Virus record (IMG/VR): IMGVR_UViG_3300018432_000013
Span: 48,927-112,926 of that record
Strand: one strand, 5' to 3'
Length of the DNA: 64,000 nt
Source of the DNA: a virus
Below are positions 5,063-33,075 of the stretch, piece after piece (the stretch's first letter is position 1; every line of letters begins with the position of its first letter). A program made the position numbers and the translations under genes. The notes under the pieces are model-generated. The model did not search any database and was not told the origin of the DNA. It was given only the letters and a program-made list of their open reading frames with translations.

Positions 5063-5070
5063 AGCGAACC

Positions 5071-5358: not shown

Positions 5359-5362
5359 GGGC

Positions 5363-5599
5363 TCACCCTTCTTTCACGTAGACGATGATCGCTTCGATTG
5401 CGCGGCCCGACCTGCTCGCGCGGAAGTTCACACTCTGCACCTGCCGCCCATCTCGCTCAGCGCGACCTCTGGCACGTGCAAGCGCATCGTCGTGGCTCTT
5501 CACGTCGGTCAGCACGAACCGAAGCAAGAGTGCGCGCTTGCCGTCCTTGCCCGGCTGGTCACCGAACACCTCGATGGGCAGCTTCTTTGGGAGCTCCAT
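5363..5599 (-). CDS. Hypothetical protein
   Basis: 78-aa ORF in packaging operon. Confidence 0.6.
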   Translation of the reverse strand: MELPKKLPIEVFGDQPGKDGKRALLLRFVLTDVKSHDDALARARGRAERDGRQVQSVNFRASRSGRAIEAIIVYVKEG

Positions 5600-5606
5600 G
5601 GTCCGC

Positions 5607-6224
5607 TCACTTGCTCGCGTAGAGCGAGCGCAACCGCGCCCGATCCTGGTCAGACAGCAGATACGTGCGTCCGCCCTCGAGCGACTTGTCCGTCATCAAA
5701 CTCGACGCATTCGCATCGTGCGCGAGCCCAAGCACATGCCCGAGCTCATGCCGAACAACCGCATGCGCGATGTCCTCAAGCGCCAGATTCGAGAGGTAGA
5801 CGGTGCAGACCACGACCTTGCTCGTCGTCAGGTCCGCAACATGACGCACGCGACCGGCTGGGTTGAAACCGCCCTGCTCGAACGGCACATCAAAGTCTGC
5901 GATCACGTCCGCCTGCGCACTCTGGCTCGCAGCGAGCTGCTCAAGTATGTCCAGGCCAAGCTCAGCCTCGAGCGACTCCACCGCTTCATAGAACATCTCG
6001 TGCTGCCAGGGAGATCCGCCGACCACGTGCGTCTTGAGCGGCATCGGCTTCTGCCACACCACCTCGGTGCAGTCCCCGACATAGTCGAATGAGCCGTCCG
6101 CGCGCACGCAGCCACGCAAGAGGTCCGCCTCTTCGTGCGTCCGAACGCCGTAGATCAGCAGGCCGATCATCGCCGCCGCGAACGCTACAAAGCCGACTAA
6201 CGCCCATCGTTCCTTCATCGTCAT
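5607..6224 (-). CDS. Membrane-anchored matrixin-like (metzincin) zinc metalloprotease
   Basis: N-terminal hydrophobic helix; HELGHVLGLAH (HExxHxxGxxH) followed by Met-turn SLM. Confidence 0.85.
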   Translation of the reverse strand: MTMKERWALVGFVAFAAAMIGLLIYGVRTHEEADLLRGCVRADGSFDYVGDCTEVVWQKPMPLKTHVVGGSPWQHEMFYEAVESLEAELGLDILEQLAASQSAQADVIADFDVPFEQGGFNPAGRVRHVADLTTSKVVVCTVYLSNLALEDIAHAVVRHELGHVLGLAHDANASSLMTDKSLEGGRTYLLSDQDRARLRSLYASK

Positions 6225-6260
6225 AGGCCCCTCAACTTGGTGTTGGTGCCCGATCGCGGC

Positions 6261-7841
6261 TCACCCGAGCACACGAACTTCACCGCCCCGATGTTTCGCC
6301 GCGTACGCACGCGCAGCCTCACGCCCGATCCACTGCGCCATGAGGCAATCGCCGGTGTGCCCGTCTGGGGAGTAGTAGCGAGTCTCTTGCTCCCAAACTT
6401 GGACGTTCGGCTCGGTCACGAGCTGCGTCTCCCCGTTCACCACGCCAAGCTCACAAGGGATGAGCCAGCTTGCCGCCTCGAGCTCTCCAGCGAGCGATTC
6501 GACGCCGTACGCTCGCGAGTGCTTGTTCATGCCCGTGCGAAAGCCGCGCACAAGAATCTCCGGATAGTCTTCGGCGAGCCACTCAAGCAGGTACTGCTGC
6601 GCAGAGTTGTTCTCGACGAACATCCAGCTCCGATAGCGCGTCCAAACATCGACCACCTGCGCGATGATCTCCGGGCTCTTCCAGCGGCCGCGGCGAATGT
6701 TCAGAAGCTGCCGCGTCTGATCTGGCCAGAGCAGGAACGTGAAGAGCACGGTGTGATCGGCGGAGTCCTGCTTCGAGACGCCGAGGTCGATGCCCGTGAA
6801 CGTGCGAAAGCCGGGCGCGAAGCGAAACGACTTCGGCCGCAGGTCCCAACTGAGCCCCTTTCTGCGCCAGTACTCAGGGCCTATCCAATGCACGAAGTCG
6901 CGCAGGCTCTTGAACATCGGATAGCCGAGCCCGCGCTGTTTGCACTTGTCGATCCACGCCTGTTGAAACCGCGCATCCTCATCCGCATGCGCCTCGCACA
7001 TCATCATGCGTGCGAACTCGGTCGGGCCGTACTCCTCCGTGCGCACCTTGTTGATGCGCTCCTTGGGCCAGCGCTGCGGAGACGCGAGGTTGCCCGCCGC
7101 ATCCATCACCGGGTACTTCTTGGCAAGCCACCCTTGCCGCGCGAGCTCGTGCGCGAAGTCGTCCGGATGAAACGCGTTGGCGAGCACGATGACTTGCGAC
7201 CGCTTCGAGAGGCGTGAGAACACCGAGGCGCGGATCCACGTCCCCGTCTTGTTGCGCTGGTACGCCGTGCGCGTGTTCTCTTCGACCAGCACGTCGTCGA
7301 TGATGACCACGTCGAGACGCGCGCCCTGCACTGCGCCGTTCGGCGAGACCGCCTGCACCGACGGATCCTTGATGATGCCGGGACGCGCGATGGTGATCGC
7401 GTGGTCGGTCCACATCACACCCCGGCGCAAGTCCGGAAAGATGTGATGCAGGGTCGCGTTCGTCTCGATGTGCCGGCGCAACGAGGCGATGATCTTCTTC
7501 ACCTGCTTCTCAGCCGCCGCGAGGATGGCGATACGCAGGCGAGGATTACGGCCGAGCAGCCAGAGCACCCGGCCGACCGAGAACTGCTGGCTCTTGCCCG
7601 ACTCGGGGAACGCCCAGATGACCATGTTGCGGCCCGTGTCCGCCGTCCCATGCCACTCGTAGTGCATGGGCAGCATCTCGATCGGGTCGCCGGTCTCCTC
7701 GTCCTTGAGCGTGAGCTCGCAGAACAGCGCGCAGTCCTCGCGCGCAAGCTCCAGCAGGCTCGCGTACGCCGCCTGCGCCTGCTTTACCTCAGCGGCCCGA
7801 TCGTAGGTCGGATCGCCGCTCTGCATGCTCCTGGCCCCCAC
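6261..7841 (-). CDS. terL: Terminase large subunit
   Basis: Walker A-like PESGKS, GARLDVVIIDD Walker B, C-terminal nuclease GIDLG...DHT...GDCLMA; upstream of portal. Confidence 0.9.
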   Translation of the reverse strand: MGARSMQSGDPTYDRAAEVKQAQAAYASLLELAREDCALFCELTLKDEETGDPIEMLPMHYEWHGTADTGRNMVIWAFPESGKSQQFSVGRVLWLLGRNPRLRIAILAAAEKQVKKIIASLRRHIETNATLHHIFPDLRRGVMWTDHAITIARPGIIKDPSVQAVSPNGAVQGARLDVVIIDDVLVEENTRTAYQRNKTGTWIRASVFSRLSKRSQVIVLANAFHPDDFAHELARQGWLAKKYPVMDAAGNLASPQRWPKERINKVRTEEYGPTEFARMMMCEAHADEDARFQQAWIDKCKQRGLGYPMFKSLRDFVHWIGPEYWRRKGLSWDLRPKSFRFAPGFRTFTGIDLGVSKQDSADHTVLFTFLLWPDQTRQLLNIRRGRWKSPEIIAQVVDVWTRYRSWMFVENNSAQQYLLEWLAEDYPEILVRGFRTGMNKHSRAYGVESLAGELEAASWLIPCELGVVNGETQLVTEPNVQVWEQETRYYSPDGHTGDCLMAQWIGREAARAYAAKHRGGEVRVLG

Positions 7842-7897
7842 GGGGCCGAGAGTATCACGAACGACTCCGCTGGCCGCAACGGGCTAGGTGAGCCGGC

Positions 7898-8248
7898 TCA
7901 GTGCACCGAATCGTCGTCTGGAGGCTGGGCCGGGGCCAGCTCAGGCGCGACCAGTCCGAGCGCAACCATGTTCTCGTGCATGCCTCGGACCATCTCCTCG
8001 TTCTCTGCCACCCGCAGGACCTCCTCGCAGATCTCCTCAAACGAATAGTCGGTGTGGTGCACCAACAGGCCTCCGAGCAGCCCGTGCACGTGCAGCAGCA
8101 CGTTGGGCGTGATGCCCTTCTGCGGATCGGCCATCAACCGAAGGATCTCCTCAAACGCGATGGCCGCCCGCGCAGCCGCTTCCACGTGATCTTCGCCGCA
8201 GTCTTTACACGCTGCCATGGACCTGCGCCTCCTCCGGGTAACAAACAA
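7898..8248 (-). CDS. Hypothetical protein
   Basis: ORF upstream of terL; likely start MAACKDCG. Confidence 0.55.
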   Translation of the reverse strand: MFVTRRRRRSMAACKDCGEDHVEAAARAAIAFEEILRLMADPQKGITPNVLLHVHGLLGGLLVHHTDYSFEEICEEVLRVAENEEMVRGMHENMVALGLVAPELAPAQPPDDDSVH

Positions 8249-8915
8249 TGAGATGAGAGCAGGGCCTCTTTTCGCCGTACATCAAACACGCACTCTTGGT
8301 CGGTGGTAGGTCAAGCACGGGCCTTCGTTCTTCCTTCACGAGCGCCATGTAATCGATGAGCTGCGAGCGCGCGCGTAGCACGCGTGTCGCATCGTCCATG
8401 GAGATCTCCGTCTCCACCGGCCGCAGATCGATGGGCTCTGTGCGCTTGTAATAAAGCCACTGCGCCGTGCAGGTCGTCGTCCCGTAGTGCCTCATCGCGA
8501 AGAACGCGTAGATGCAGGCCTGCAGGTTCGTGCGCAGGCGTGGTGCAGTCAGCGCGAATCGATAGTGATCCACCGTCTTGTGATCGACCACGATGGGCCC
8601 GCAGGGAGCAATCCACATCAAGTCGGGCTTCAACCGAAAGCCATGCGCTCCGTACGTGACCACCTCGTCCTGCTCGATACAGGGGGCGTCCGCAAGCGTC
8701 GGGAAGTAGTCGCGCGCGAGCGCAGCAAGCCGCCCCATGGGCTTGGTCAAATCAAACTCGATGCCGTAGCGCACGTAGTTCTCGACGTGCGCATGAAGAT
8801 CGTCGCCATCCTCTTGCGGCTTGCCGCGCGTCTCGTGCCGCCCGCCGTACGCGCTCCACGCCCACTTCCGAACGCACTCCTCGGCTGTCTTGACCTGGCT
8901 GTAGGAGGTAATCAC
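8205..8915 (-). CDS. PD-(D/E)XK exonuclease, Cas4/AddB-like
   Basis: SYSQ...CVRKW, KPDL...VVDHKT, QACIYA and a C-terminal C-x8-C-x5-C cluster; start placed at GTG 8915. Confidence 0.8.
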   Translation of the reverse strand: MITSYSQVKTAEECVRKWAWSAYGGRHETRGKPQEDGDDLHAHVENYVRYGIEFDLTKPMGRLAALARDYFPTLADAPCIEQDEVVTYGAHGFRLKPDLMWIAPCGPIVVDHKTVDHYRFALTAPRLRTNLQACIYAFFAMRHYGTTTCTAQWLYYKRTEPIDLRPVETEISMDDATRVLRARSQLIDYMALVKEERRPVLDLPPTKSACLMYGEKRPCSHLIVCYPEEAQVHGSV

Positions 8916-9257
8916 GCGTGTTGCCTCAGCTGTGCTCGGTGGAGACCCGTATCCAACGCAGCCCCGTCTTGCGGCAGGACGGCGTATGACACGAGGCACT
9001 GCGTTATCTGCCGTGGCACTTGCAGTCCAGCCCGCACAACGCGAACCCGTGATTTCCGCAGCCCGCATTCGCGTCGGTGAGCAACTATCCACAGATACTG
9101 ATTGGGAAACGGCCATGCTGACAAGCATTCCGCATCTAACCAACGCAACTTAGGTGCGCGAGAGCACACCCATCCAGCAGGTCGGTACCCTCGATCGATC
9201 GCCACGTTCACAATCTAGGTTGGTGCCTCGTTACACGTCTGCTTGACGGCTGTCAGC

Positions 9258-15935: not shown

Positions 15936-16501
15936 CAGAGCTCCTCAAGGTTATGCACGTCCTGAAACAGCAGCGTGACGTCAATCTGTGCGCCCAACCC
16001 GAGCGTGATGGTGGCTTCGCGCAGCGAAGCGTGCCCCCACCCAACCTCCGTGCGCCAAAAGCGCTCGAACAAACCGTGCCGCGGGTCGACGAGCAGGTAC
16101 TCCGCGAGAGACGGGATGGACTTGTAGTGTTCGAACTTCTCGCCCCGGTCGTAGTCCTCCGTGCTTGGGCTCAGCACCTCGGCGATCAGCACCGGGTTGA
16201 GCACCGTGTTGGTGGCCTTCGGGTGATACTCGACAGGCGCACAAACCACGGTCACATCCGGATACGTGATGAGCCCGCTCGGCGTCGCGATGCGCAGGTC
16301 TGAAGTGTGCGCGCCGCACCGCTTGCCACGAAGCTGCGGACCGAGCTGCGTAATCAGGGCTGCTGCGCCTGCCGCGTGCTCACGCGTTCCGCCCGTCATC
16401 GCGTAGACGGTGCCGTAGAGCCACTCGTGCTTTTCACGGCTCTGCTCCTCGAAGGCGATGTATTCGTCCAGCGTGAATCGCGTGTGTGCGGGCGTGAGCA
16501 T
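15935..16501 (-). CDS. Uma2 family endonuclease
   Basis: KHEWLYG..YAMTGGT..H...YPDVTVVC...NPVLIAEVLSPSTEDYDRGEKFEHYKSIPSL. Confidence 0.92.
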   Translation of the reverse strand: MLTPAHTRFTLDEYIAFEEQSREKHEWLYGTVYAMTGGTREHAAGAAALITQLGPQLRGKRCGAHTSDLRIATPSGLITYPDVTVVCAPVEYHPKATNTVLNPVLIAEVLSPSTEDYDRGEKFEHYKSIPSLAEYLLVDPRHGLFERFWRTEVGWGHASLREATITLGLGAQIDVTLLFQDVHNLEEL

Positions 16502-16561
16502 CAGGACTCCTAACGTGGCTTGGTTTCTGCGAGGCGCCGGCAGGCGCCGAGGGTGGGGTGT

Positions 16562-17014
16562 TCAGGAGACCGCGCGCAGCGCATCGCGAATGAGCTTATC
16601 GAGTCGTACCGAAAGAGCGTCCGCGAGGGCAAGCGCATAGGGGAGGGTGGGGGTTGCACCGTTCTCGATGGCGCAGATTCCCTCCTTGCCGCGATAGCCG
16701 GAGCGCAGCGCGAGCTCCGCTTGGCTGAGCCCGAGCTCTAGCCGGCGCTCCTTCACCAGCTTGGCGAACGCCAGGGCGAAGTCCCGTCCAATCCGCGGAG
16801 GCGTCTTCTGGCCTGGTGGACGACCACGGCCACGCTTGCTTGCTGGGAGCTGGGGCACGGGGAGAGCGACCTCTGGGGAGCGGGGAGCGGGGAAGTGGGG
16901 AGCGGGGGAGTCAGGCAGGCGGAAGCGCTGCCTTCGCTTTGATGCATTCAGGGCACTTGTGGCGATAACCGAACACCTGATTGCCGTACGTGCGCCACCC
17001 CTCTGCTTTTGCAC
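16562..17014 (-). CDS. XRE-family HTH regulator with AT-hook; true start probably near 16858
   Basis: VKERRLELGLSQAELALRSG...ICAIENG..PTL; RGRGRPP. Confidence 0.8.
   Translation of the reverse strand: MQKQRGGARTAIRCSVIATSALNASKRRQRFRLPDSPAPHFPAPRSPEVALPVPQLPASKRGRGRPPGQKTPPRIGRDFALAFAKLVKERRLELGLSQAELALRSGYRGKEGICAIENGATPTLPYALALADALSVRLDKLIRDALRAVS
16874..16910 (+). repeat. G-run repeat (G4-N3-G4-N3-G4-N4-G4-N3-G5), G-quadruplex-capable
   Basis: tggggagcggggagcggggaagtggggagcgggggag. Confidence 0.6.
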
Positions 17015-17123
17015 GCTCTAGTGCAATCGCGGGCGTCTCACTGTCGTACGCCGCCGCGAACATGCAGCGCGGACTGAAGGCGTCACATCGCACCTCGAAC
17101 ACCTCGCATGTCTTGACGCTCAT
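16911..17123 (-). CDS. Small Cys-containing (Zn-binding) hypothetical protein
   Basis: VRCD....C ... GW ... HKCPEC. Confidence 0.6.
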   Translation of the reverse strand: MSVKTCEVFEVRCDAFSPRCMFAAAYDSETPAIALERAKAEGWRTYGNQVFGYRHKCPECIKAKAALPPA

Positions 17124-17526
17124 AGGAACAGCTCCTCAAGGGACCGCTGCTTATCCGATAGCACAAGAGCTGCAGATTTTTCTAACAAAAGTGCAGCCCT
17201 TATTTTTTGATACAGGTGATAGCAAATTTTGCGTAGACAGGCGCTGGGGTGGGCCCCCTACGGGGGCCTCAGCGGCCCCGAAAACGAGGGCGAGATGTAG
17301 GTGGAGGGGGTTGCCTACCTGTGCGCGGCCCCCCGCACACACGCTGCCTACACCCTCTCTGTGTCCCGCCTCGCTCGTTTCCGATTCCCCATACTGTAAA
17401 GATACGCGTTAGCGTCCCTCGCGTCAAGCATGCGCACGCTGGCGCCCCTGCTTTTCTCGCTCGCCTGACTCTGCTTTGCGTGTCTCACGTCTAAGTTATC
17501 GGCCACGTGGCGCGAGACTTGAGAGA

Positions 17527-17550
17527 GAAAGAGCAGGGCCCTGCTCTTTC
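17527..17550. repeat. Perfect 24-bp palindrome
   Basis: gaaagagcagggccctgctctttc. Confidence 0.85.
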
Positions 17551-17628
17551 GTATCACGCAAAGGGCGCTTGCCTCCCGTGCTTTTCTCGTATCTACTAAG
17601 AACACCTCAGACACGGGAGCACGAAACC

Positions 17629-18153
17629 ATGGATCTAATCTCGACCACATTCGCACTTCTCTCATTGGCCAGCCTAGCCGTTTATACCCTGGCCTGTACA
17701 TGGGCCCTATTCGCGACCTTCCCGCTAGCTGAGACGCTGGCTGTGGCGCAAGAGAAGGCATTCCGCGGTAGCGCCTCCCGTAGCCTGCTCGCTCCCGTGC
17801 CTGCTCTTCTCTCGGTTGGCCCCCATTCTGAGAAAAGAGCAGATCCGATTGCCGCGCTAGCGCGGCAATCGAGCCTTGCCGCGCTAGCGGCGCTGGCTCC
17901 CAAGTGCGAGCGCCCTAGCGCCCGCACTTCTCTCGGCCTCAGGATGCGCCGCCCACTGTCGGCGCGCCTTCCCGCATGGCTGGCCGATGATTCGGCCAGC
18001 GCCTCAGAGCCAGCCGAACGGGTTATCACCATGGGCCCATGCGTCGCATTGCTCGTTCCGCTTTCTCTTTCTCAGAGGGGCGCTCAGACTCTGAAAAGCA
18101 GCCACGGGAAGCGCCGCAGATCGGCACCTGCAATGCTGAGGCTCGCAGCGTAA
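17629..18153 (+). CDS. Cassette ORF, hypothetical membrane protein
   Basis: ATG preceded by acgggagcac and TTGCCT-17-TCTACT; hydrophobic N-terminus. Confidence 0.5.
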   Translation: MDLISTTFALLSLASLAVYTLACTWALFATFPLAETLAVAQEKAFRGSASRSLLAPVPALLSVGPHSEKRADPIAALARQSSLAALAALAPKCERPSARTSLGLRMRRPLSARLPAWLADDSASASEPAERVITMGPCVALLVPLSLSQRGAQTLKSSHGKRRRSAPAMLRLAA

Positions 18154-18649
18154 GCAGATACGAGAAAGCGAACCTACGCAGCCTTGACGTGCAAACGTCA
18201 AGGCTTTCACGCGTTTATGGTGGAAAGGTCGGCGCGGAGAAAGCGGCCCGCAAGGGCTGCGGTGTAGCTCGGCTGGCGCCTCGCATGGGAAGCACGCCAG
18301 CCAAAGTGCGAAAAAGCGTGTGATTTCGCTAGGCGGAATCGTGCGCTCGGGAAGCGCCAGCGTGCAACGCTCGGGAAGGCCGGGATAGCCGGGCAGTCGC
18401 ACGGGTAGCCGGTCGGCGCTTGCCAGGCTTGCGAGCCTGAGAAGGTCGGGAAGGCATCGGATAGGTGGTCGGCGCTTGCATAGCTCGGGAGGCGGTAGCG
18501 TGGCGCATGGGAGGCGCTAGCTAAGCTTGCCCGGGTAACCTTGGCTCCCATACCGCTAGCGCTAGCCGGGCCCCTCTTTTGAGCCACGGGAAGCGCCAGC
18601 GCCTTCCCGAGCGGCTGAAAGAGAAAAGCACCGATCGCTCTTTTTCGAT

Positions 18650-18676
18650 TCAAGTTAGGCGCGGCAGTGCCGATAA
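18650..18676 (+). promoter_or_regulatory. Sigma28/FliA-type promoter, copy 1
   Basis: TCAA-N15-GCCGATAA. Confidence 0.75.
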
Positions 18677-18709
18677 CTAGGGCAGCAGCCCAGCAAAGGA
18701 ATTCCGAAC

Positions 18710-18904
18710 ATGAAGCGCCGCAATCGGATTGTTTCGTTCCTGCCCACCAGCAGCAGGCATTGTTTTTACCTCGCAGCTACCGGCAGACTCACTCAACTTC
18801 GCTTAGAGGCTCAACTGTTTACGTCGAAAGAGGCACACGAGGCGCAGGCCAGCAGCAAAGATAGATACGGGCCCGGGCAATGGGGCATCGAGGCCGTTGG
18901 CTGA
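18710..18904 (+). CDS. Cassette ORF, hypothetical
   Basis: Lies between promoter copies 1 and 2; AAGGA RBS. Confidence 0.55.
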   Translation: MKRRNRIVSFLPTSSRHCFYLAATGRLTQLRLEAQLFTSKEAHEAQASSKDRYGPGQWGIEAVG

Positions 18905-18931
18905 AATCGAACGGACCTACTCTTTTTCGAT

Positions 18932-18958
18932 TCAAGTTAAGCGCGGCAGTGCCGATAA
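18932..18958 (+). promoter_or_regulatory. Sigma28-type promoter, copy 2 (leaderless transcript)
   Basis: TCAA-N15-GCCGATAA, with ATG 7 nt after the -10 box. Confidence 0.75.
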
Positions 18959-18965
18959 CTAGGGC

Positions 18966-19181
18966 ATGAGCCGAATGGAACAGATTGATGCGCGATGGGA
19001 ACTCATGAGCGACGCGATTCGCGCGCTTCGCAGCTTGGGCGTCTCGCTCGAAACGCGCGAACGCCTCAGCAAGCTCCTCGATGCCGCTTGGACGCATGAG
19101 CGGACACTCGAGTGCGACCGGCTAGTCCGCGCCAGCACCGACAAAGGCGCGCGCGAGATGGTCGCCCGCTGGATCGGCTGA
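18966..19181 (+). CDS. Cassette ORF, hypothetical
   Basis: Fills the interval between promoter repeats. Confidence 0.6.
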   Translation: MSRMEQIDARWELMSDAIRALRSLGVSLETRERLSKLLDAAWTHERTLECDRLVRASTDKGAREMVARWIG

Positions 19182-19208
19182 AATCGAACGGGCCCGCTCT
19201 TTTTCGAT

Positions 19209-19235
19209 TCAAGTTAGGCGCGGCAGTGCCGATAA
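19209..19235 (+). promoter_or_regulatory. Sigma28-type promoter, copy 3
   Basis: TCAA-N15-GCCGATAA, followed by hairpin tgaggcgc..gcgcctca and acgggagcac. Confidence 0.75.
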
Positions 19236-19276
19236 TACTTATGAGGCGCACGCAAGCGCCTCACGGGAGCACGACA

Positions 19277-19699
19277 ATGGTTACCACGCTTGAAAAGATC
19301 GCGGCGCTTGAAACACTCGAGCAACTTCACGCCAGCGGTACGGCTCCCATCTCGCAAGATGCCTTGACGGATCTGATCAATGGCATCCGTGGCGAGCTGC
19401 ATGCCGCAGAAGAGCGCGCCGGATACGATGCCGCGCAATCTGAGCTTGCCGCGTTTCAAGCGGCTCACATCTACATGAGCCGCGGTCTCAAATATGCGGC
19501 CGATTGCGCTTGCTGCGGCGCACACATTGCGCGCGCGCTGAAATACTCGGGAGGCCTCCCGGCGTACTGGCGCAAGTCAGACAAAGCGATCGTTTGCGTC
19601 GATTGCTACAGCGCCAGCGAGTTGAGCCAGCGGGCCGTTGCGTACGGCTGGGCGAGCAAGCTTGACGGGAGCCGCATCTTGCGCGATTGCGAGAAATAA
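19277..19699 (+). CDS. Cassette ORF with zinc finger
   Basis: CACCG...CVDC; ATG after acgggagcac. Confidence 0.65.
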   Translation: MVTTLEKIAALETLEQLHASGTAPISQDALTDLINGIRGELHAAEERAGYDAAQSELAAFQAAHIYMSRGLKYAADCACCGAHIARALKYSGGLPAYWRKSDKAIVCVDCYSASELSQRAVAYGWASKLDGSRILRDCEK

Positions 19700-19721
19700 C
19701 CGGGCCCGCTCTTTTTTCGAT

Positions 19722-19748
19722 TCAAGTTAGCGCGGCAAGCGCCGATAA
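19722..19748 (+). promoter_or_regulatory. Sigma28-type promoter, copy 4
   Basis: TCAA-N15-GCCGATAA. Confidence 0.75.
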
Positions 19749-19791
19749 CAATGGTGAGGCGCAAGCAAGCGCCCGAACGGGAGCACGGGAA

Positions 19792-19962
19792 ATGACTTTT
19801 GACGAGTGCGACGGCGCCACGGTTACGCGGAAGCAAGCTCTCCGGGAGATCAAGCGCCACGCTTACAAGGCGCTTGACGAAATGATTGCCGAGTTCGACG
19901 CCGAGGTAGGCGTGTGTGAGCAATACGATGCCATGGCTGTCTTGATCTGGCTTGGCTACTGA
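19792..19962 (+). CDS. Cassette ORF, small acidic protein
   Basis: ATG after acgggagcac; ends VLIWLGY. Confidence 0.65.
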   Translation: MTFDECDGATVTRKQALREIKRHAYKALDEMIAEFDAEVGVCEQYDAMAVLIWLGY

Positions 19963-20062
19963 CATGCGCCGATTCGTTGCCGAAACCATCGCGGCAATCG
20001 GCTGGATCCGCTTTCACGTGGCGCACTTAGCCGCATACAAGCGCCAGCGCCGCAACAGAGAC

Positions 20063-20094
20063 TTGCGCGGATCGCGTTAGTCGTATCTAATAAT
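20063..20094 (+). promoter_or_regulatory. Sigma70-like promoter (related copies at 17569, 20979, 23036, 27596)
   Basis: TTGCGC-N17-TCTAAT; cgtatctaataatc shared with the 20979 copy. Confidence 0.55.
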
Positions 20095-20133
20095 CAAAGG
20101 TCGCAATCGAGCGACCGAACGGGAGCACGGAAC

Positions 20134-20391
20134 ATGCAGCATAAGCACGAAGTACGTTTGGTGTGCGGCAATCGCTACGATGCCGGTTTCACGGTTGTTT
20201 ATAGCAAGCGCGTCCGCTCTGAGGCATGCGCACTGCGGATTGCTCGCAAGCTTCGCGACCGCCATTGCGAGGAAACCCGAAGCGGCCGCAAGTGTCGCGA
20301 TTTTGTCGAAGTGGCGAATCGCGGTAGTGGTGAATGCCTGACGTTGGACGCAAACCTAGTCCCGAGTGTGGGCGAGCTCGGTTACTGGTGA
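20134..20391 (+). CDS. Cassette ORF, hypothetical
   Basis: ATG after acgggagcac. Confidence 0.6.
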   Translation: MQHKHEVRLVCGNRYDAGFTVVYSKRVRSEACALRIARKLRDRHCEETRSGRKCRDFVEVANRGSGECLTLDANLVPSVGELGYW

Positions 20392-20477
20392 TAGCGGCGC
20401 CTGCTGGCGCTGGTCTCGCGTAAGCGCGTTTGCCTCGCAAGCGCCTTTACTCGAGTCAAGCAACGGGAGCACGGAAC

Positions 20478-20954
20478 ATGGCCAAACAAACGAAAATCGA
20501 ATCTCACGAGCTTACCGCCCCTGCAAGTTGGGCAAGCTACTTGATCAATGGCGATGCCTCAGGATTCGATTACTACAATACGCCCAACGATGCCGCAGGC
20601 GATCGCGATCGGGAGGCTTGCGAAGCATGGATTGCGGCGCTTGCGGCCAATAACGCGCACGTAGTGAGCGCCAATGGTGAGCCGTTTTTCGCGCGCTATT
20701 GCGATGCCGATCGGGTAGTTTCCGGATTGCTTGCGGGCGACATGCTCACTTACCAGATCTTGCGGCATGCGCCGATCTACTACTCGCTGTCTATCCCGCA
20801 CTCGAGCACTCCCACGGAATGGCATCCAACCGAAGCAACGGGCCCGTTTGCCGTGCTTAGTCGCGGTGCATTTGCCACGGAAGCGGAAGCCCACGAATGG
20901 GCCCGCACTCATCTTGCGGGCCAGCCGTATAGCGTCCGGGAGTTTGCCGGCTAA
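20478..20954 (+). CDS. Cassette ORF, conserved phage early-type protein (WASYLINGDASG motif)
   Basis: ATG after acgggagcac; motif recalled from phage hypothetical proteins. Confidence 0.65.
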   Translation: MAKQTKIESHELTAPASWASYLINGDASGFDYYNTPNDAAGDRDREACEAWIAALAANNAHVVSANGEPFFARYCDADRVVSGLLAGDMLTYQILRHAPIYYSLSIPHSSTPTEWHPTEATGPFAVLSRGAFATEAEAHEWARTHLAGQPYSVREFAG

Positions 20955-21054
20955 TCTCTCGCGTATCGCGAAAGAGTGTTGACCGGGCCCGGCTATCTCG
21001 TATCTAATAATCTCATAGGCGCGCAAGTGAGCGAGCCGAACGGGAGCACGGGAA

Positions 21055-21252
21055 ATGGCCAGCCGCAAAATTGAGACTCTGATCGTGGAAACGCTAGCCG
21101 CACTTGAAATCGAACGCATGATCGCGGAAGCGATTGCGGAAGCGACGATCGGCGCCGCTATCGCGGAATGTCTAGCCCTCACCGATTTCGATTGCGAGCG
21201 CTCTTATGTGGGCCCGATCGTGGCTTGCTCAGATATCGCACTTGCCGCATAA
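21055..21252 (+). CDS. Cassette ORF, hypothetical
   Basis: ATG after acgggagcac. Confidence 0.55.
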   Translation: MASRKIETLIVETLAALEIERMIAEAIAEATIGAAIAECLALTDFDCERSYVGPIVACSDIALAA

Positions 21253-21261
21253 AGAAACCGC

Positions 21262-21288
21262 TAAAGCGATACGCGATAGTGCCGATAA
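21262..21288 (+). promoter_or_regulatory. Sigma28-type promoter, copy 5 (exact consensus)
   Basis: TAAA-N15-GCCGATAA. Confidence 0.8.
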
Positions 21289-21332
21289 CTAAGTGTGAGG
21301 CGCAAGCAAGCGCCCGAACGGGAGCACGCAAC

Positions 21333-21773
21333 ATGGCAACGAAGTACAAGCTAGTCTCTGGTGATGTGTCCGGCGCGCCCGCACTGTATGCGGCGCGAAT
21401 CGACGAAACCACGTTCGCGGTTTACGAGATCAATGAATGGGAGGATCTCGATTCCTCCGCGGTCGAGACTCACGGGAAATACAACGTTCAGGCGGGAATC
21501 GTCGATGTGCGCGGTTTCGACAGCCACACACAGATTCCCGGCTATTTTTCGGATAGCGTGCGGAGCGCGCTGCAATCGTGCGGCTGGGAAATCGACGGCA
21601 GCGGCAATATCTGGTGTCCTTACAGTGGTGACATTGTCGTCCAAGCTGGCTCGCCCGCATTCGAACTGTGTCTAGTCGAATGCCTGTGGCAGTACGGGGC
21701 AAAAGATGTTGCGGCCGATGTGTCCGGCGATAACTTGCGCAAGCTCGTGCGGGAAGCGCGCGCGGCAGTCTGA
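21333..21773 (+). CDS. Cassette ORF, acidic hypothetical
   Basis: ATG after acgggagcac. Confidence 0.65.
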   Translation: MATKYKLVSGDVSGAPALYAARIDETTFAVYEINEWEDLDSSAVETHGKYNVQAGIVDVRGFDSHTQIPGYFSDSVRSALQSCGWEIDGSGNIWCPYSGDIVVQAGSPAFELCLVECLWQYGAKDVAADVSGDNLRKLVREARAAV

Positions 21774-21797
21774 TACCGGCTAGTGGCGCTAGCGCCT

Positions 21798-21859
21798 TTA
21801 CTTGAATCGAACGGGCCCGCTCTTTTTCGATTCAAGTAAGCGCGGCAAGCGGACGATAA
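21798..21859 (+). promoter_or_regulatory. Sigma28-type promoter, copy 6, inside a 14-bp inverted repeat
   Basis: ttacttgaatcgaa...ttcgattcaagtaa; TCAA-N16-GACGATAA. Confidence 0.65.
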
Positions 21860-21902
21860 CAATGGTGAGGCGCAAGCAAGCGCCCGAACGGGAGCACGCA
21901 AC

Positions 21903-22367
21903 ATGGCAACGATTACGTGGAACATGGGCAGCAACGTGGAAGCGGTCTCAATCAAAACGGCTAGCGCGCTCGAAATCGCGATCGCAACCATCGTTGCAGA
22001 GCACGCCGATAGCTACCCGGACACGGGAGCCGTTGGATTCCTTAAGGATCTCGCGTACGGCGGTTGCGAGTCCGGCATGGTGGGCGAGCTTGTCTACTAC
22101 CGCGATACGTGCGCCTTTTATGAGACACATCGGCGCGAGATCGCCACGCTATTGAGCGAGATGCTTGCCGATGTAGGCGCAGACTCACCTCAAGGCCTGT
22201 TCGGTGAAAAGTGGGATCGCGAAGATCCGCTCGCATTGGAGGAAACGAATCAAAACTTGCTTGCGTGGTTCGCTTGCGAGGAAACGGCGCGCCGGTTGAC
22301 GCAACTTGCGCGTGAGAGCTTGCCGGATGCGAGCGCTGGCGCGCGCGCGCTTGAAACACTCCTCTAG
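21903..22367 (+). CDS. Cassette ORF, acidic conserved phage protein
   Basis: GCESGMVGELVYYRDTCAFY...NLLAWFACEETAR motif. Confidence 0.7.
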   Translation: MATITWNMGSNVEAVSIKTASALEIAIATIVAEHADSYPDTGAVGFLKDLAYGGCESGMVGELVYYRDTCAFYETHRREIATLLSEMLADVGADSPQGLFGEKWDREDPLALEETNQNLLAWFACEETARRLTQLARESLPDASAGARALETLL

Positions 22368-22390
22368 TCGCTACTTGCTCCCGTGGCGCA

Positions 22391-22440
22391 GCGAATCGGG
22401 CCCGCACTCTGCAAAACGAGTGCGGGCCCGATTCGCGTTT
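22391..22440 (+). terminator. 19-bp stem hairpin, possible terminator
   Basis: gcgaatcgggcccgcactc / gagtgcgggcccgattcgc, then gttt. Confidence 0.55.
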
Positions 22441-22454
22441 GCGGTTCGTTTGCG

Positions 22455-22930
22455 GCCGCTGGCGCTGGCTCCCGTGGCAACGCTGGCTCCCGTGCTCCCG
22501 TGGCGGCGCTGGCTTCCCGAGCGGCGCTGGCGCTGGCTTGCCGTGCTCCCGTGCTCCCGAGCGGCGCTGGCGCTGACCTTGCTCCCGTGGCGTGCTCCCG
22601 AGCGGCGCTGGCTTGCCGTGGCGCTGGCTTGCCGTGCTTCCCGAACGGCGCTGGCGTTCAAACTAGCCTCCCATGCGCCTCGGGAAGGCGCGCCAGCGCC
22701 AGCGGCTAGCCGGACATAGCCGCACGCTACGCTGGCGCCGCTTGCGAGCAGCTAGCGCGCTTCCCGTGCTTCCCGTGCTTCCCGTGGCGCTGGCTCCCGT
22801 GCTCCCATGCTCCCGTGCGGCGCTGGCTCCCGTGGCTGGCTCCCGTGGCTGGCTCCCGTGGCTGGCTCCCGTGGCGCTGGCGCTGGCACTGGCTTGCCGT
22901 GTTCCCGAGCGGCGCTGGCTTCCCGTGGCA
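22455..22930. repeat. Low-complexity repeat tract of gctcccgtg / ggcgctggc units
   Basis: Includes about four tandem copies of the 13-mer gctggctcccgtg (around 22822-22873). Confidence 0.8.
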
Positions 22931-22964
22931 TTGCCGCGACTTGCGAGAATCTTTCTTTTTCGAT

Positions 22965-22992
22965 TCAAGTAAACGCGGCAAGCGGCCGATAA
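22965..22992 (+). promoter_or_regulatory. Sigma28-type promoter, copy 7
   Basis: TCAA-N16-GCCGATAA. Confidence 0.65.
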
Positions 22993-23086
22993 CTTAGGTG
23001 AGGCCAGCGAGACGCTAGCCGGATGCGGAAAAAGATTGACGGCAAACGAGCAGACCGGCTAATCTGATACTAGAAAGAGCGAGCAG

Positions 23087-23269
23087 ATGAAAAAGCCAAC
23101 CAAGTATGTGTACGAATACATCGTACAGGGCCACTACGGTCAGGGATGGGAAGACCTGACCGCGCACGACACGCGCAAAGCGGCACGCGACGAGCGGCGC
23201 GTGTACGCGGCAAACGAGCCGGGCCCGCATCGGGTCATCTTCAGGCGCTCTCTCCGGCACACGGTTTGA
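23087..23269 (+). CDS. Cassette ORF, conserved small phage protein (VQGxYGxGWED motif)
   Basis: 60-aa ORF after a sigma70-like promoter. Confidence 0.65.
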   Translation: MKKPTKYVYEYIVQGHYGQGWEDLTAHDTRKAARDERRVYAANEPGPHRVIFRRSLRHTV

Positions 23270-23390
23270 GCACACGGGATCTCGCACACGGGATCTGCAC
23301 ACGGGTTGAGCCCTGCACACGAGCACACGGTCTCGCGCACACGGCTCAGAACGCGAGCACGCGGTCTGACAGCACACGGGAGCACGAATC

Positions 23391-23702
23391 ATGGCAATGA
23401 ACGCTGACATCGAACACGCGCGCACACGGCTTCTCGCGGTCCTCTCGGAGGGCTCAAAAGTCTACTGCGTACTTCGCACACGGTCTAAGTCGGGAATGTC
23501 GCGCACGGTGTCTTTCTTCACCTACCACGACGGGCACATGGTTTGGCTTGACGGCTACATGCACACGGTTTGCGGCTTCGCCCGCAAAGGCGATTCGCTG
23601 GTCATCAAGGGTGTTGGGCAGGACGCGGGGTTGCACGCGGTTTCGACGCTAGCCGCGAAGCTCTTCGGCCGCTCCGATGCGCTAGGCCACGAGTGGCTCT
23701 GA
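23391..23702 (+). CDS. Cassette ORF, conserved phage protein (VY..LR..S.SGMSR motif)
   Basis: ATG after acgggagcac. Confidence 0.7.
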   Translation: MAMNADIEHARTRLLAVLSEGSKVYCVLRTRSKSGMSRTVSFFTYHDGHMVWLDGYMHTVCGFARKGDSLVIKGVGQDAGLHAVSTLAAKLFGRSDALGHEWL

Positions 23703-23810
23703 ACTGAACATGCACGCGGGATCGCGCGCTGAGGTTCTCTCGCAATCCGCACACGGGATCGCGCTCGAATCTGAGCACACGGGCTCAACTTTCACGGGAG
23801 CACACGGCAC

Positions 23811-24074
23811 ATGGAAAAACATTACAGCTACGGTTCAGGCTCAACGGGCTGCATGTACGATTCAGGCCCGCACACGGCTTCGACTCTCGAAGACGCAATC
23901 GAAGGCGCGCTGTGTATCTTCGACGACCTTAGCGACGGCGCGCTCGCTTGTGCACGCGCGGATCTACTCGCACACGGGATCCACTACTTCCCTGAACTAG
24001 TACGCGGATACGCTGGCGCCGATTACGTCGAAGTGGTCGAGCAAGCCGGTCCCTGCCCTGAGTCCGACGACTGA
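23811..24074 (+). CDS. Cassette ORF, hypothetical
   Basis: Flanked by repeats. Confidence 0.7.
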   Translation: MEKHYSYGSGSTGCMYDSGPHTASTLEDAIEGALCIFDDLSDGALACARADLLAHGIHYFPELVRGYAGADYVEVVEQAGPCPESDD

Positions 24075-24185
24075 ACGCACACGGGATCGCACGCGAGGAT
24101 CGCGCGCTGAGATTCTTCCGCCAGCCTGCACACGGCTTGCGCTCGAATCTGAGCACACGGGCTCAACTTTCACGGGAGCACGAAC

Positions 24186-24377
24186 ATGGGAAACATGAAG
24201 CACTACACGCTACAGATTCGCAAGCCTGGCCGCGCATATCGCACGGTCGAGACTTCGACCGACGCCGCATCGATTCGCTGGGCTTTCGACCAGCACTTGG
24301 TGCCTTACGGTGAGAGCAGCGTGCGAATCTTGGACACGAACGGCGCAGTCATCATGCGCGCCACGCCAAAGCAGTAA
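24186..24377 (+). CDS. Cassette ORF, hypothetical
   Basis: Flanked by repeats. Confidence 0.65.
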   Translation: MGNMKHYTLQIRKPGRAYRTVETSTDAASIRWAFDQHLVPYGESSVRILDTNGAVIMRATPKQ

Positions 24378-24480
24378 CGCACACGGGATCGCACGCGGGA
24401 TCGCGCGCTGAGATTCTCTCGCAATCCGCACACGGGATCGCGCTCGAATCTGAGCACACGGGCTCTAAGGAGTAAGACAC

Positions 24481-24849
24481 ATGGCAAGGCAGCGCAAACT
24501 TGGTTCACGGCAGAAGGCAAACGCGGACGCTGCATTCCTGGCCGCATTCGAGCGCGCAATGGTACTACTCGGCGCCACGAAGCGCGCGGACTGGACGTGG
24601 ACAGCACATGAGTACGAAATCGAAACGCGTGCAGGTCGACTCGGCATCACGGGTTATCCCACGTCGCTCTCGGAGCCAGGCGGTTGGGTGGCGATGCGCT
24701 TCGACGACACCGAGCGCGCGAACACACTCGGACTCGGACAGCTCCTCAACAGGAATAGCGGCAAGTACAACGTAGATAGCCTGTACGGCTGCTCAGACGC
24801 GACCGAAGTTACCGACACGATCATGCGCCACGTACAGCGCGCGCTCTGA
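24481..24849 (+). CDS. Cassette ORF, hypothetical
   Basis: TAAGGAG RBS; flanked by repeats. Confidence 0.7.
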   Translation: MARQRKLGSRQKANADAAFLAAFERAMVLLGATKRADWTWTAHEYEIETRAGRLGITGYPTSLSEPGGWVAMRFDDTERANTLGLGQLLNRNSGKYNVDSLYGCSDATEVTDTIMRHVQRAL

Positions 24850-24956
24850 AAGATTGCGCACGCGGGATCGCGCGCTGAAATCTGCACACGGGCTTGCCTC
24901 GCACGCGGTCTGCAGATTTGAGCACACGGGCTCAACTTTCACGGGAGCACACGGTC

Positions 24957-25142
24957 ATGAAATACATCCTGAAGCAAGAGACGAACGACGGGATTTGGAC
25001 TAGCGAAGCGTTCGAGGCGCCGCACGAGCACGCGGTAAAGCAAGCGGTCGTCGCCGGCTACCTGAACGGCTCGGCACGCTGGGCAGAGACGCTCGACGGC
25101 ACGCGCATCTACGGCCTAGACAAAAAAGGAAAGCAGCTCTGA
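24957..25142 (+). CDS. Cassette ORF, hypothetical
   Basis: ATG after acgggagcac; flanked by repeats. Confidence 0.65.
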   Translation: MKYILKQETNDGIWTSEAFEAPHEHAVKQAVVAGYLNGSARWAETLDGTRIYGLDKKGKQL

Positions 25143-25255
25143 GTCGCACACGGGATCGCACGCGGGATCGCGCGCTGAGATTCTTTCGCCAGCCTTGCAC
25201 ACGGCTTGCGCTCGAATCTGAGCACACGGGCTCAACTTTCACGGGAGCACGGAAC

Positions 25256-25480
25256 ATGGAAAAAGACACAAGCCACCTAGGCGCGCTACAGGTTCGCCTC
25301 TCGCACGAACGAAACCGCCTGAACGCAGCGAAGACGGAAGGCGAGCGCGAACTTCGCCAAGTCTGGGTCGCTCAGATTGAAAAGGAAATCGCAGGCGAGA
25401 AGGCTTTCCTCGGGATGGTTGACGAATCTCCTACGACTGAGATGAGCGCTGACGACCTTCTCGCTGAACTTCTCGCCTGA
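25256..25480 (+). CDS. Cassette ORF, hypothetical coiled-coil protein
   Basis: Flanked by repeats. Confidence 0.7.
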   Translation: MEKDTSHLGALQVRLSHERNRLNAAKTEGERELRQVWVAQIEKEIAGEKAFLGMVDESPTTEMSADDLLAELLA

Positions 25481-25584
25481 ACCTGCACGCGGGATCGCGC
25501 GCTGAGATTCAACCGCCAGCCTGCACACGGCTTGCGCTCGAATCTGAGCACACGGGGCTCAACGCACACGGGAGTTTACGAAAC

Positions 25585-25800
25585 ATGGAAACGAAAAAGC
25601 AGCACACGGCGCCAGTTCTTAGGCTCGCTTCGGTTCGGCGGACGCGCACACTCTTCGTGCTGCGCTACGAAGAGGGACAGGGCGAGAGGCGCAAAGGTGA
25701 TTATCTCTACCTGCTCACGCGGGATCGCGCAGACAAGGTCATCGACCGCGCGCGCCGCCTTGGAATCCGCGTCTTTCGGATCCCCTACCGCATTCGCTGA
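25585..25800 (+). CDS. Cassette ORF, basic hypothetical
   Basis: Flanked by repeats. Confidence 0.6.
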   Translation: METKKQHTAPVLRLASVRRTRTLFVLRYEEGQGERRKGDYLYLLTRDRADKVIDRARRLGIRVFRIPYRIR

Positions 25801-26203
25801 CTCGCACACGGGATCTCGCACACGGTTTCGTGCATAGCAGACTGCGCTTCGGGTTTGGGGCCTCCATCGTGCTCCCACACTCGCCCAAACTACGAAGCGC
25901 TCTCTGCTGCACACGAACTCCGCACACGGCACGCACCTCGCACACACGGATTTCCAATTAAGTTCTACGCCACGTACGAATACGTCACACGCATGCACGC
26001 GGTAGTCACGCTAACGGACGAGCAAAAACAACTTTGCCGGTGCTTACCGCGTCGAGTACCGACCCGGCCACAACATCTACGAAACAAGCTTCAAACACGC
26101 CGAGCAAGCCGCAGCCCTCAAAGGCGGTCGGCTTGAGCGGTTCACCCGGGTCTGAAGCACACGGCACGCACCTCGCACACGGCATTCAAGGAGGAACACG
26201 GCA

Positions 26204-26461
26204 ATGGCACACGGATTCACACGCGACTGCCTCGTCTCAATCATCTACGACGTGCTCGACAAGCGCTGGGACGGCGACATGAGCCCATACAAAATCTCAG
26301 AAGTCGCAGCCGACGCACTCATCACAGCCGGCATCGAGGTCGCTACAGAACCGAGCGAAGAAGAGCGCGAGATTGCCGCATGCGAAGCGCGCGCCGAGCT
26401 CGATGAGTACCTGCTCGATCTTCACAACGATCAACTCGCTGACGAGGCGATGGGCAAATGA
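26204..26461 (+). CDS. Acidic hypothetical protein
   Basis: AAGGAGG RBS. Confidence 0.65.
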   Translation: MAHGFTRDCLVSIIYDVLDKRWDGDMSPYKISEVAADALITAGIEVATEPSEEEREIAACEARAELDEYLLDLHNDQLADEAMGK

Positions 26462-26649
26462 ACGACGAAGAACGCAAGAAACTACTGCGCTCGGCTATGC
26501 TTGCCTGCCGCAGTCCGATGTACACGATGCACATCGAGACGCGCGAGCAACTTCTCGCGGGCCTCGAACACGCGAACATCAGCGCAGCCGATCTCGTTCG
26601 TTTTGCCATCGACACGCACCGCAAAAACAGCTGAAGGAAACCCGCCACC

Positions 26650-26940
26650 ATGCCAACGCCCACCCCCATCAAGCTCACGCTCGTACGCGCAGGCCTCGAA
26701 GCCATCGAGCGGCACGTAGAGAAGATTCCCTATCACGCAAACCTCATCCGCTCCGACCTCGAAGCGAGCTACCTGGAGCGCGAGCGCGCGCTCTTCATCT
26801 CGCAGCAGTGCGTCAGCATCCGCGATGCGCTCGCGAGCGCTCTGCGCGCAATCAACGCGATCGACAAGGACGCGCAGCAATACCTTGCCGAGACCGATCC
26901 GAACCCTTCATCTCACGCCCGACTCCCGAATAAAGATTGA
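26650..26940 (+). CDS. Hypothetical protein
   Basis: AAGGA RBS. Confidence 0.6.
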   Translation: MPTPTPIKLTLVRAGLEAIERHVEKIPYHANLIRSDLEASYLERERALFISQQCVSIRDALASALRAINAIDKDAQQYLAETDPNPSSHARLPNKD

Positions 26941-26971
26941 CGGTGCTACCGGCGGTGCTACCATGGCTGCT

Positions 26972-27193
26972 ATGGCTACCGTCCACAAGATCAGCATCTC
27001 GCTCGGCTCTGAAGACCTCGAATGGGCACGCAAAAAGGCCGAAGAAACTGCGAGTAGTGTCTCCGCAGTGATGAGCGGCGCACTGCGCCGGGAGCAACAA
27101 CACGAAGCGCGACTAAAGCTTCTCGAGTGGCTCGGTACGGACGACATCACCGAAGCAGACCGTGAAGCCATACGCCTAGAACTACGCTCGTGA
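26972..27193 (+). CDS. vapB: Ribbon-helix-helix antitoxin (VapB-like)
   Basis: KISISL...LEWARKKA...SVSAVM; overlaps the PIN gene by 4 bp; promoter TTGACG..TACCAT with direct repeats cggtgctacc. Confidence 0.75.
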   Translation: MATVHKISISLGSEDLEWARKKAEETASSVSAVMSGALRREQQHEARLKLLEWLGTDDITEADREAIRLELRS

Positions 27194-32433: not shown

Positions 32434-33075
32434 ATGCGCGCTGACGTGCAGTCTCCAGCCGACGTGATCACCGATGAGATTGAGCGGATCATTGCGAAGC
32501 TAGCGCGGGACGTGGCAGAGCGTCTTCGCTCCTGCGACCGCTACCAAGCCAGACAAGACATCGCACAGGCCTTGCGCCTGGTCGCGCTGCAAGAAGCGCC
32601 CAAGTATCGCGGCGACAACGGCGCGACCCTAGCGACATTCCTCTACCGAGCGCTGCGTGTCAAAGCCTGGTCGGTCGGCTTCTGGCTCGACCTGCCCACG
32701 CATGTCGCAAAGAACAAGCGCACGGGCGTTTGGACCACGCGCACGGCTGCGCAGACCGACAAGCGCGCTACGGATGCACGCGCACCGAGAGACGACTTAC
32801 CGCCTGCCGAGGCCATGGACCTGATCCGCGACCCCGAAGACCTCGAGAGCCGCCTCGCAGACCGCGAGATCGCCGCGCGTGTCGAGGCCGTTCTGCACGA
32901 GGATCCACAGCACGAGGCGATTGCTCGTGTGCTGTTCGACGGCGAGAAGGCACCCGACGTGGCACGCGACACGGGGGTACCCATCGGCGACCTTCGCAAG
33001 TGCATCGTACGCACACGCGCACGGCTTCGACGCGACCCGACGCTGCAAGAGCTCTACTTCCGCTGCCTGGCGTGA
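32434..33075 (+). CDS. Phage-encoded sigma70-family (alternative) sigma factor
   Basis: Region 2-like QDIAQ...KYRGDNGATLATFLYRALR; region 4 HTH LFDGEKAPDVARDTGVP...RARLR; AGGAG RBS. Confidence 0.75.
   Translation: MRADVQSPADVITDEIERIIAKLARDVAERLRSCDRYQARQDIAQALRLVALQEAPKYRGDNGATLATFLYRALRVKAWSVGFWLDLPTHVAKNKRTGVWTTRTAAQTDKRATDARAPRDDLPPAEAMDLIRDPEDLESRLADREIAARVEAVLHEDPQHEAIARVLFDGEKAPDVARDTGVPIGDLRKCIVRTRARLRRDPTLQELYFRCLA

Follow-up and report, generated by a model that had tools for sequence, protein, structure and literature searches.

Gene layout of the predicted early region

The DNA considered here is a window of 64,000 nucleotides, the right-hand 64 kb of the IMG/VR phage record IMGVR_UViG_3300018432_000013, and its subject is a cluster of repeated promoter-like elements, similar to those read by sigma-28, that stand between small genes at about 17.5 to 23 kb of the window (all positions below are those of the window). 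The source record is a complete phage genome of 112,926 bp with 123-bp direct terminal repeats and a G+C content of 62.9%. Among its virion genes are a contractile-tail set (sheath, baseplate J, gpD hub and tape measure), a terminase and a portal, and its other genes include a family-A DNA polymerase that carries a fused uracil-DNA glycosylase domain, a DnaB-like helicase, ThyX and a ligase, together with an M15 endolysin and a Cas12-type gene. The structural genes lie on the minus strand and run leftward up to about 16.5 kb; small plus-strand genes start at about 17.6 kb and form a rightward block that leads into the replication genes. No tRNA was found in the window, and there is no Rfam match at 16000-27000.

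The block that carries the elements consists of single small genes. Of 20 small open reading frames (ORFs), none has a homologue in the one relative genome compared, G001 (IMG/VR, 116 kb), which is syntenic over the virion and replication genes and has a 44% identical DNA polymerase, and none is paralogous to another; to judge by this comparison the 5.5-kb block is hypervariable. Homologues were found for only two of its ORFs, a DUF7222 protein and a member of phrog_25588, whose functions are unassigned, and no ORF of the block received a function from Pfam, PHROGs or the ESM Atlas. In Enterococcus myophages the homologues of these two sit close to the genome ends, and in Pectobacterium podophages they fall within the first kilobase. 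Such locations fit an early accessory region and do not address function, and the role in host takeover or anti-defence proposed earlier is a candidate one.

The sigma-28-type elements

The sequence-only reading of this DNA had listed seven plus-strand copies of T(C/A)AA-N15/16-G(C/A)CGATAA, and all seven are present exactly, at 18650, 18932, 19209, 19722 and 21262 with a gap of N15 and at 21832 and 22965 with a gap of N16. A further copy, the eighth, is on the minus strand (17522..17496) and would fire leftward, bringing the N15 copies to six beside the two with N16. Searched as fixed-gap patterns, these six and two occurrences compare with expectations of 0.01 and 0.00, respectively, in dinucleotide-preserving shuffles of the window. 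The motif scan of the whole genome that had been proposed as a check returned precisely these eight sites and none elsewhere in 112,926 bp. When a position weight matrix of the two boxes was run over both strands of the whole genome, the eight sites scored 23.4-28.5 bits and the next-best site 14.9 bits, while the maxima in 20 Markov-random genomes were 12.6-19.1. Given that the next-best site falls inside the random-genome range, the set is sharply bounded, and it is restricted to 5.5 kb out of 113 kb.

Aligned with one another, the eight copies have as invariant columns T.AAG, G.CGATAA and a CGC within the spacer. The -10 octamer reads GCCGATAA in seven of the eight copies and GACGATAA in the other (21832); the -35 box reads TCAAGT in seven and TAAAGC in one (21262), with T, A, A and G invariant; and three copies read exactly TCAAGTTA-N11-GCCGATAA. 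The wider TTTTTCGATTCAAGT context that had been described around most copies is found around six of the eight. It is missing from 21262 and from the minus-strand copy at 17522, whose flanks are unrelated, and these two have nothing in common with the other copies beyond the invariant columns. The outermost copies, 17522 on the minus strand and 22965 on the plus strand, are inverted copies of each other.

The likeness to validated promoters is close. The Escherichia coli sigma-28 (FliA) consensus is TAAAGTTT-n11-GCCGATAA (PMC2859248). Among natural E. coli promoters, flgKL, which is bound by FliA in vivo, reads TCAAGT-N13-GCCGATAA (chromatin immunoprecipitation sequencing, ChIP-seq, table in PMC4183435), the fliLMNOPQR promoter starts with TCAAG, and fliC carries GACGATAA (PMC4183435). 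Both phage departures from the consensus, TCAAG and GACGATAA, correspond to natural variants bound by FliA, since the first is carried by flgKL and fliL and the second by fliC. At the aer promoter, mutations at the -35 positions T1, A3 and G5 cripple activity (PMC2859248); positions 1, 3 and 5 are invariant in the phage copies, and the variable position 2 is the one that varies in E. coli too. The phage elements thus show the -10 octamer, the -35 element and the 11-nt gap between octamers that mark the sigma-28 class, as measured against a consensus that is E. coli's and may not be the host's. We regard the eight elements as very probably promoters.

All eight copies are located between ORFs, each pointing at the next ORF. 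In five of them (19209, 19722, 21262, 21832 and 22965) a stable hairpin begins 7-8 nt past the octamer, with compensatory changes among the stems (GAGGCGC/GCGCCTC, GGCGC/GCGCC and GGC.AGCG/CGCT.GCC), and at copy 18932 the ATG of a 71-aa ORF stands at the eighth nucleotide past the -10 octamer. The E. coli aer transcript starts 6 bp past its -10 octamer (PMC2859248). Given that spacing, the hairpins would be 5'-terminal on the predicted transcripts, and the predicted mRNA from copy 18932 would probably be essentially leaderless. The arrangement proposed earlier, a hairpin and a shared CACGGGAGCAC ribosome site after the promoter, holds for four of the seven plus-strand copies (19209, 19722, 21262 and 21832); copy 22965 has the hairpin without the site, 18650 has neither, and 18932 has the ATG instead. 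The conserved unit also extends into the end of the upstream ORF, where GGC TGA AATCGAAC is found twice. The swappable unit is composed of this ORF end, a T-run, the predicted promoter, the 5'-terminal hairpin, a GGGAG ribosome site and the ATG. Upstream folds are weak in most copies (z from -0.1 to -1.3) and strong only at 21832 and at 17522 on the minus strand; the GC-rich palindromes upstream were considered as intrinsic terminators and rejected for most copies because of this weakness.

Table 1. Predicted promoters and other features of the region, by class and window position
Feature	Position	Strand	Remarks
Sigma-28-type element, eighth copy	17496..17522	-	TCAAGT-N13-GCCGATAA; 28.5 bits; leftward; flanks unrelated
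Sigma-28-type element	18650..18676	+	TCAAGTTA-N11-GCCGATAA; precedes ORF 18710-18904 (64 aa)
Sigma-28-type element	18932..18958	+	ORF 18966-19181 (71 aa); ATG 8 nt past octamer
Sigma-28-type element	19209..19235	+	Hairpin 19243-19262; ribosome site 19262-19272; ORF 19277-19699 (140 aa)
Sigma-28-type element	19722..19748	+	Hairpin 19755-19775; ribosome site; ORF 19792-19962 (56 aa, phrog_25588)
Sigma-28-type element	21262..21288	+	TAAAG in -35 box; unrelated flanks; hairpin 21296-21316; ORF 21333-21773 (146 aa)
Sigma-28-type element	21832..21859	+	N16; -10 box GACGATAA; hairpin 21866-21886; ORF 21903-22367 (154 aa, DUF7222)
Sigma-28-type element, right edge	22965..22992	+	N16; tandem with 23036-23065; precedes ORF 23087-23269 and long rightward small-gene block
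Sigma-70-like promoter	17569..17597	+	TTGCCT-N17-TCTACT; common TCGTATCTA core
Sigma-70-like promoter	20063..20091	+	TTGCGC-N17-TCTAAT; hairpin 20099-20116, ribosome site; ORFs 20134-20391 (85 aa) and 20478-20954 (158 aa)
Sigma-70-like promoter	20979..21008	+	TTGACC-N18-TCTAAT; hairpin 21018-21037; ORF 21055-21252 (65 aa); palindrome CCGGGCCCGG in spacer
Sigma-70-like promoter	23036..23065	+	TTGACG-N18-TAATCT; downstream partner of copy 22965
Sigma-70-like promoter	17399..17427	-	TTGACG-N17-TATCTT; downstream partner of minus-strand sigma-28-type copy; leads to ORFs 17123..16911 (70 aa, CxxC pairs) and 16858..16562 (98 aa, XRE-type HTH)
Terminator-like hairpin closing cassette array	22391..22436	+	Perfect 19-bp arms; -50.4 kcal/mol, z = -7.0
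Sole sigma-factor gene detected in phage	32434..33075	+	ECF-like; sigma-2 and sigma-4 domains, no sigma-3

Sigma-70-like promoters in the same slot

Other cassettes had been assigned promoters of a sigma-70 type, and TTGnnn-N17/18-TCTA(A/C)T is indeed present at the three places concerned (17569-17597, 20063-20091 and 20979-21008). These three, with the TCGTATCTA core, occupy the slot that a sigma-28-type element fills elsewhere, and two of them precede the same type of hairpin and CACGGGAGCAC site. That two different two-box elements fill one slot of one module suggests that they behave as interchangeable promoters, and not as a recombination site or an operator. The proposed split into two promoter classes is a fair description of this pattern, the sigma-28-type elements alternating with sigma-70-like ones before the same 5' untranslated region (5'UTR) module. 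Two additional sigma-70-like promoters, of TTGACG type, occur at 23036-23065 on the plus strand and at 17427..17399 on the minus strand. Both outermost sigma-28-type copies face outward, each backed by one of these. Overall, about half of the small early accessory genes are preceded by predicted sigma-28-type promoters.

The phage sigma factor and a third promoter-like class

The idea that the only sigma-factor gene detected in the phage (32434-33075) encodes a sigma-28-type factor finds no support in its sequence or its predicted fold, as the product is a two-domain protein resembling the extracytoplasmic function (ECF) sigmas and has no FliA/WhiG match. It is a divergent sigma, with weak region-2 and ECF-family matches; a full HMMER search against 1.8 billion representatives returned 14 relatives. 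A profile built from this family matches solved ECF sigmas across both domains (E ~1e-3) and, more weakly, the sigma-2 domain of FliA (E = 0.018). In the AlphaFold model the sigma-4 domain is confident and the sigma-2 domain moderately confident, a disordered linker of 50 residues takes the place of region 3, and the best structural matches are sigma-E, sigma-L, sigma-H and AlgU. The FliA/WhiG model (TIGR02479) has no match in the phage genome even at E <= 10, and searches of the same genome returned no sigma region 3, no region 4 by Pfam, no FlgM and no T7-type RNA polymerase.

A different box, (A/G)GGCACYAAC, occurs in 18 genome copies before replication and virion genes, often at most 10 nt from the start codon; those in the window are at 6242, 9219, 10081, 11028, 31543, 38122, 39794, 43727, 43901 and 49190. 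No copy lies at 17.5-31.5 kb, and no conserved -35-like partner was found upstream of the box. This box makes up a third promoter-like class, of which the phage sigma would be the natural reader; the assignment to that factor is made because the box resembles no host promoter.

Neighbouring units

Several features beside the array deserve mention in their own right. The first unit, consisting of the 17569 promoter and a ribosome site, opens at 17629-18620 a low-complexity frame of 174 codons whose status as protein-coding is doubtful; this frame passes into a tract rich in repeats, whose GGGAAGCGCC-type units are sense-oriented relatives of the ribosome-site motif. On the other side, the leftward unit (16562-17123, minus strand) comprises genes for two proteins, one of 70 aa with two CxxC pairs and one of 98 aa with an XRE-type helix-turn-helix, and is preceded by a run of CCCCGCT-type repeats; it has the appearance of a small regulatory operon placed where virion and early genes diverge. 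The hexamer GGGCCC is rare genome-wide (41 copies, against about 109 expected from base composition), and 16 of the 41 fall within 17251-23221. The palindrome CCGGGCCCGG in the spacer of the promoter at 20979-21008 may be an operator, a candidate site for a dimeric regulator. Past the terminator-like hairpin, the non-coding tract at 22480-22900 holds many units that are 76-90% complementary to 25-29 nt of the cassette 5'UTR, the portion matched being the 3' arm of the hairpin and the ribosome site. A plus-strand transcript of this tract would be antisense to the cassette leaders.

Relatives and host

No cultured phage is close to this one, protein similarity reaching at most 30%. Neither a DNA search of the phage collection nor a query with the polymerase alone found a relative; in IMG/VR, a 16-mer scan turned up single chance matches only; and alignments of the phage sigma family, run against viral and metagenome collections, recovered no loci. 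The closest relative seen (P0017) has a 65% identical polymerase and lies on a 117-kb contig from the Joint Genome Institute (JGI). As to the host, a genome scan with the polymerase alignment pointed to contigs of metagenome-assembled genomes from Myxococcales, Thermoleophilaceae and Bacillota, which were rejected as host clues, the likeness being limited to the polymerase domain without synteny. Searches with the terminase, tail sheath and fibre returned only matches of 22-30%, to phages of unrelated hosts.

The early block of G001 (L077, that is G001:1-20000, at about 4500-9200 on the minus strand) has cassette signals of its own, GTTAGCGYGTAAC repeats and a combined ribosome-site and start unit, AAGGAAGGTGGCAACGATGGCAAC. 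The start of that unit, ATGGCAAC, is identical in two cassettes of the present phage, and the two blocks have no ORFs in common. In the present phage the RecA gene (45456-47471) is split by a LAGLIDADG-type intein-like insert; an intein occurs also in the polymerase of a further relative (P0019).

Which polymerase reads the elements

We lean towards host polymerase carrying the host's own sigma-28 (FliA, SigD or WhiG) as the reader of the predicted promoters, which we hold to be probable by a modest measure, because a factor of that kind is absent from the phage. What the sequence shows is the motif, its confinement to these eight sites, the conservation of both boxes, their placement and the character of the phage sigma; where transcription starts, which sigma does the reading, the early timing and the biological purpose are what we infer. 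The most economical scheme would be a programme of two steps, in which host polymerase with sigma-70 and sigma-28 would read the early block and the phage sigma would read all else. Part of the early accessory set would then be expressed exclusively, or at a higher level, in cells with free sigma-28, namely motile cells or those in a matching developmental state, and the rest would be expressed in any cell. A more tentative proposal, somewhat short of probable, is that the phage ties this early accessory subset and both outward entry promoters to host sigma-28, thereby sensing motility at entry (for instance after flagellar adsorption) and choosing takeover or counter-defence genes to suit.

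Several considerations weigh against a host sigma-28. Free sigma-28 is scarce in most cells, which would make it an odd choice for early genes, and tandem early-plus-middle promoters before the same genes are normal in T4 and SPO1. That the host possesses a sigma-28 with preferences like that of E. coli is an assumption. The phage sigma has a confident sigma-4 domain, yet the GGGCACYAAC boxes lack a -35 partner, and that factor might therefore read two-box promoters. Finally, G001, the only relative genome compared, contains no GCCGATAA anywhere and has other repeats in its early region; because this syntenic relative lacks the octamer, the sigma-28-type motif is, as far as the comparison reaches, not ancient in the clade.

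In the main rival reading, the phage's own ECF-like sigma would use the elements as middle promoters, genes served by both promoter classes, in tandem or in alternation, would belong to an early-plus-middle set as in T4 or SPO1, and the likeness to sigma-28 promoters would be convergence. We consider this unlikely, if by no means negligible. The factor has both a sigma-2 and a sigma-4 domain and could thus read a two-box promoter, its family profile touches the sigma-2 domain of FliA, the tandems at both edges of the block resemble early/middle tandems, and the GGGCACYAAC boxes are without a -35 element. However, sequence and fold both make the protein ECF-like, and it has neither a sigma-3 domain nor a match to FliA or WhiG; the agreement of the elements with the host-type consensus extends to both boxes, the spacing and the natural variants, which convergence need not give; and no detected reader would remain for the 18 GGGCACYAAC sites before replication and virion genes.

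Another form of polymerase is in our estimation improbable, whether host polymerase with some other alternative sigma of similar consensus or host sigma-70 polymerase redirected by an unrecognised phage protein. In its favour, many of the small ORFs lack an assigned function, and the elements do contain a weak overlapping sigma-70 reading, TTCAAG-N17-GATAAC (7 of 12 matches). In that reading, however, the -10 hexamer does not end in the key T, and both the invariant GCC and the G of TCAAG go unexplained; we know of no other characterised sigma class with this consensus. It is more improbable still, to the point where we give it very little weight, that the elements are not promoters at all and are repeated recombination or protein-binding sites that merely resemble sigma-28 promoters. 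Speaking for it are the repetition of the units, which take in the upstream ORF's stop codon, their place in a hypervariable region, and the palindromes that adjoin several copies. Yet invariance is confined to the two boxes, against a variable spacer and flanks, and the boxes are not symmetric; every copy points the way of the gene downstream of it; the expected start of the transcript coincides with the beginning of a 5' hairpin or an ATG; and sigma-70-like promoters substitute in the same slot.

Comparison with known systems

Textbook phage programmes begin on the housekeeping sigma of the host and then switch to phage factors. Phages with sigma factors of their own, such as SPO1 (gp28, gp33/34) and T4 (gp55), resemble the present one in having one divergent phage sigma and a distinct promoter class, here GGGCACYAAC, on later genes, whereas their programmes begin on the housekeeping sigma alone and have no part for a second host sigma at early genes. 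In the literature searched there is no report of a phage that starts its early genes from sigma-28 promoters or uses a second host sigma for them. If a host sigma-28 does read the elements, it would link phage expression to the motility or development of the host from the first step onward. At stake would be which cells support a productive infection, how the phage deploys its accessory and perhaps counter-defence genes, and how promoters are predicted in phages that have not been cultured.

Class 3 flagellar promoters, the targets of E. coli FliA (flgKL, fliC and aer; PMC2859248, PMC4183435), are like the phage elements in both octamers, the 11-nt gap, the natural variants and the mutation-sensitive -35 positions. 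They differ in what follows, the phage copies preceding small accessory genes instead of motility genes, and in density, with eight copies packed into 5.5 kb. A FliA-dependent promoter also lies inside an invertible segment beside prophage flagellin-control loci (PMC13418256). The clusters of CtrA sites in alphaproteobacterial phages that bind pili or flagella (PMC9437464) offer a further parallel, in that sites for a host regulator of the motile state are concentrated in a promoter-rich part of the genome, and they let the phage read the state of its host. CtrA is, however, a response regulator acting on sigma-70-type promoters, with experimental support, whereas in the present phage the host factor would be the sigma subunit itself.

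In their architecture the cassettes come closest to the promoter-early stem-loop (PeSL) cassettes of T4-type phages (PMC2839356, PMC4122927). Both are short repeated regulatory units between single small genes of a hyperplastic region, and in both the conserved unit extends into the end of the upstream ORF. PeSLs are likely points of recombination, a role for which the present units are candidates. A PeSL, however, combines a terminator stem-loop with a sigma-70 early promoter between ORFs, and the eight units described here do not show that combination. They carry a sigma-28-type promoter in its place, and the hairpins upstream of it are mostly weak; the stable hairpin comes after the promoter, at what would be the 5' end of the message.

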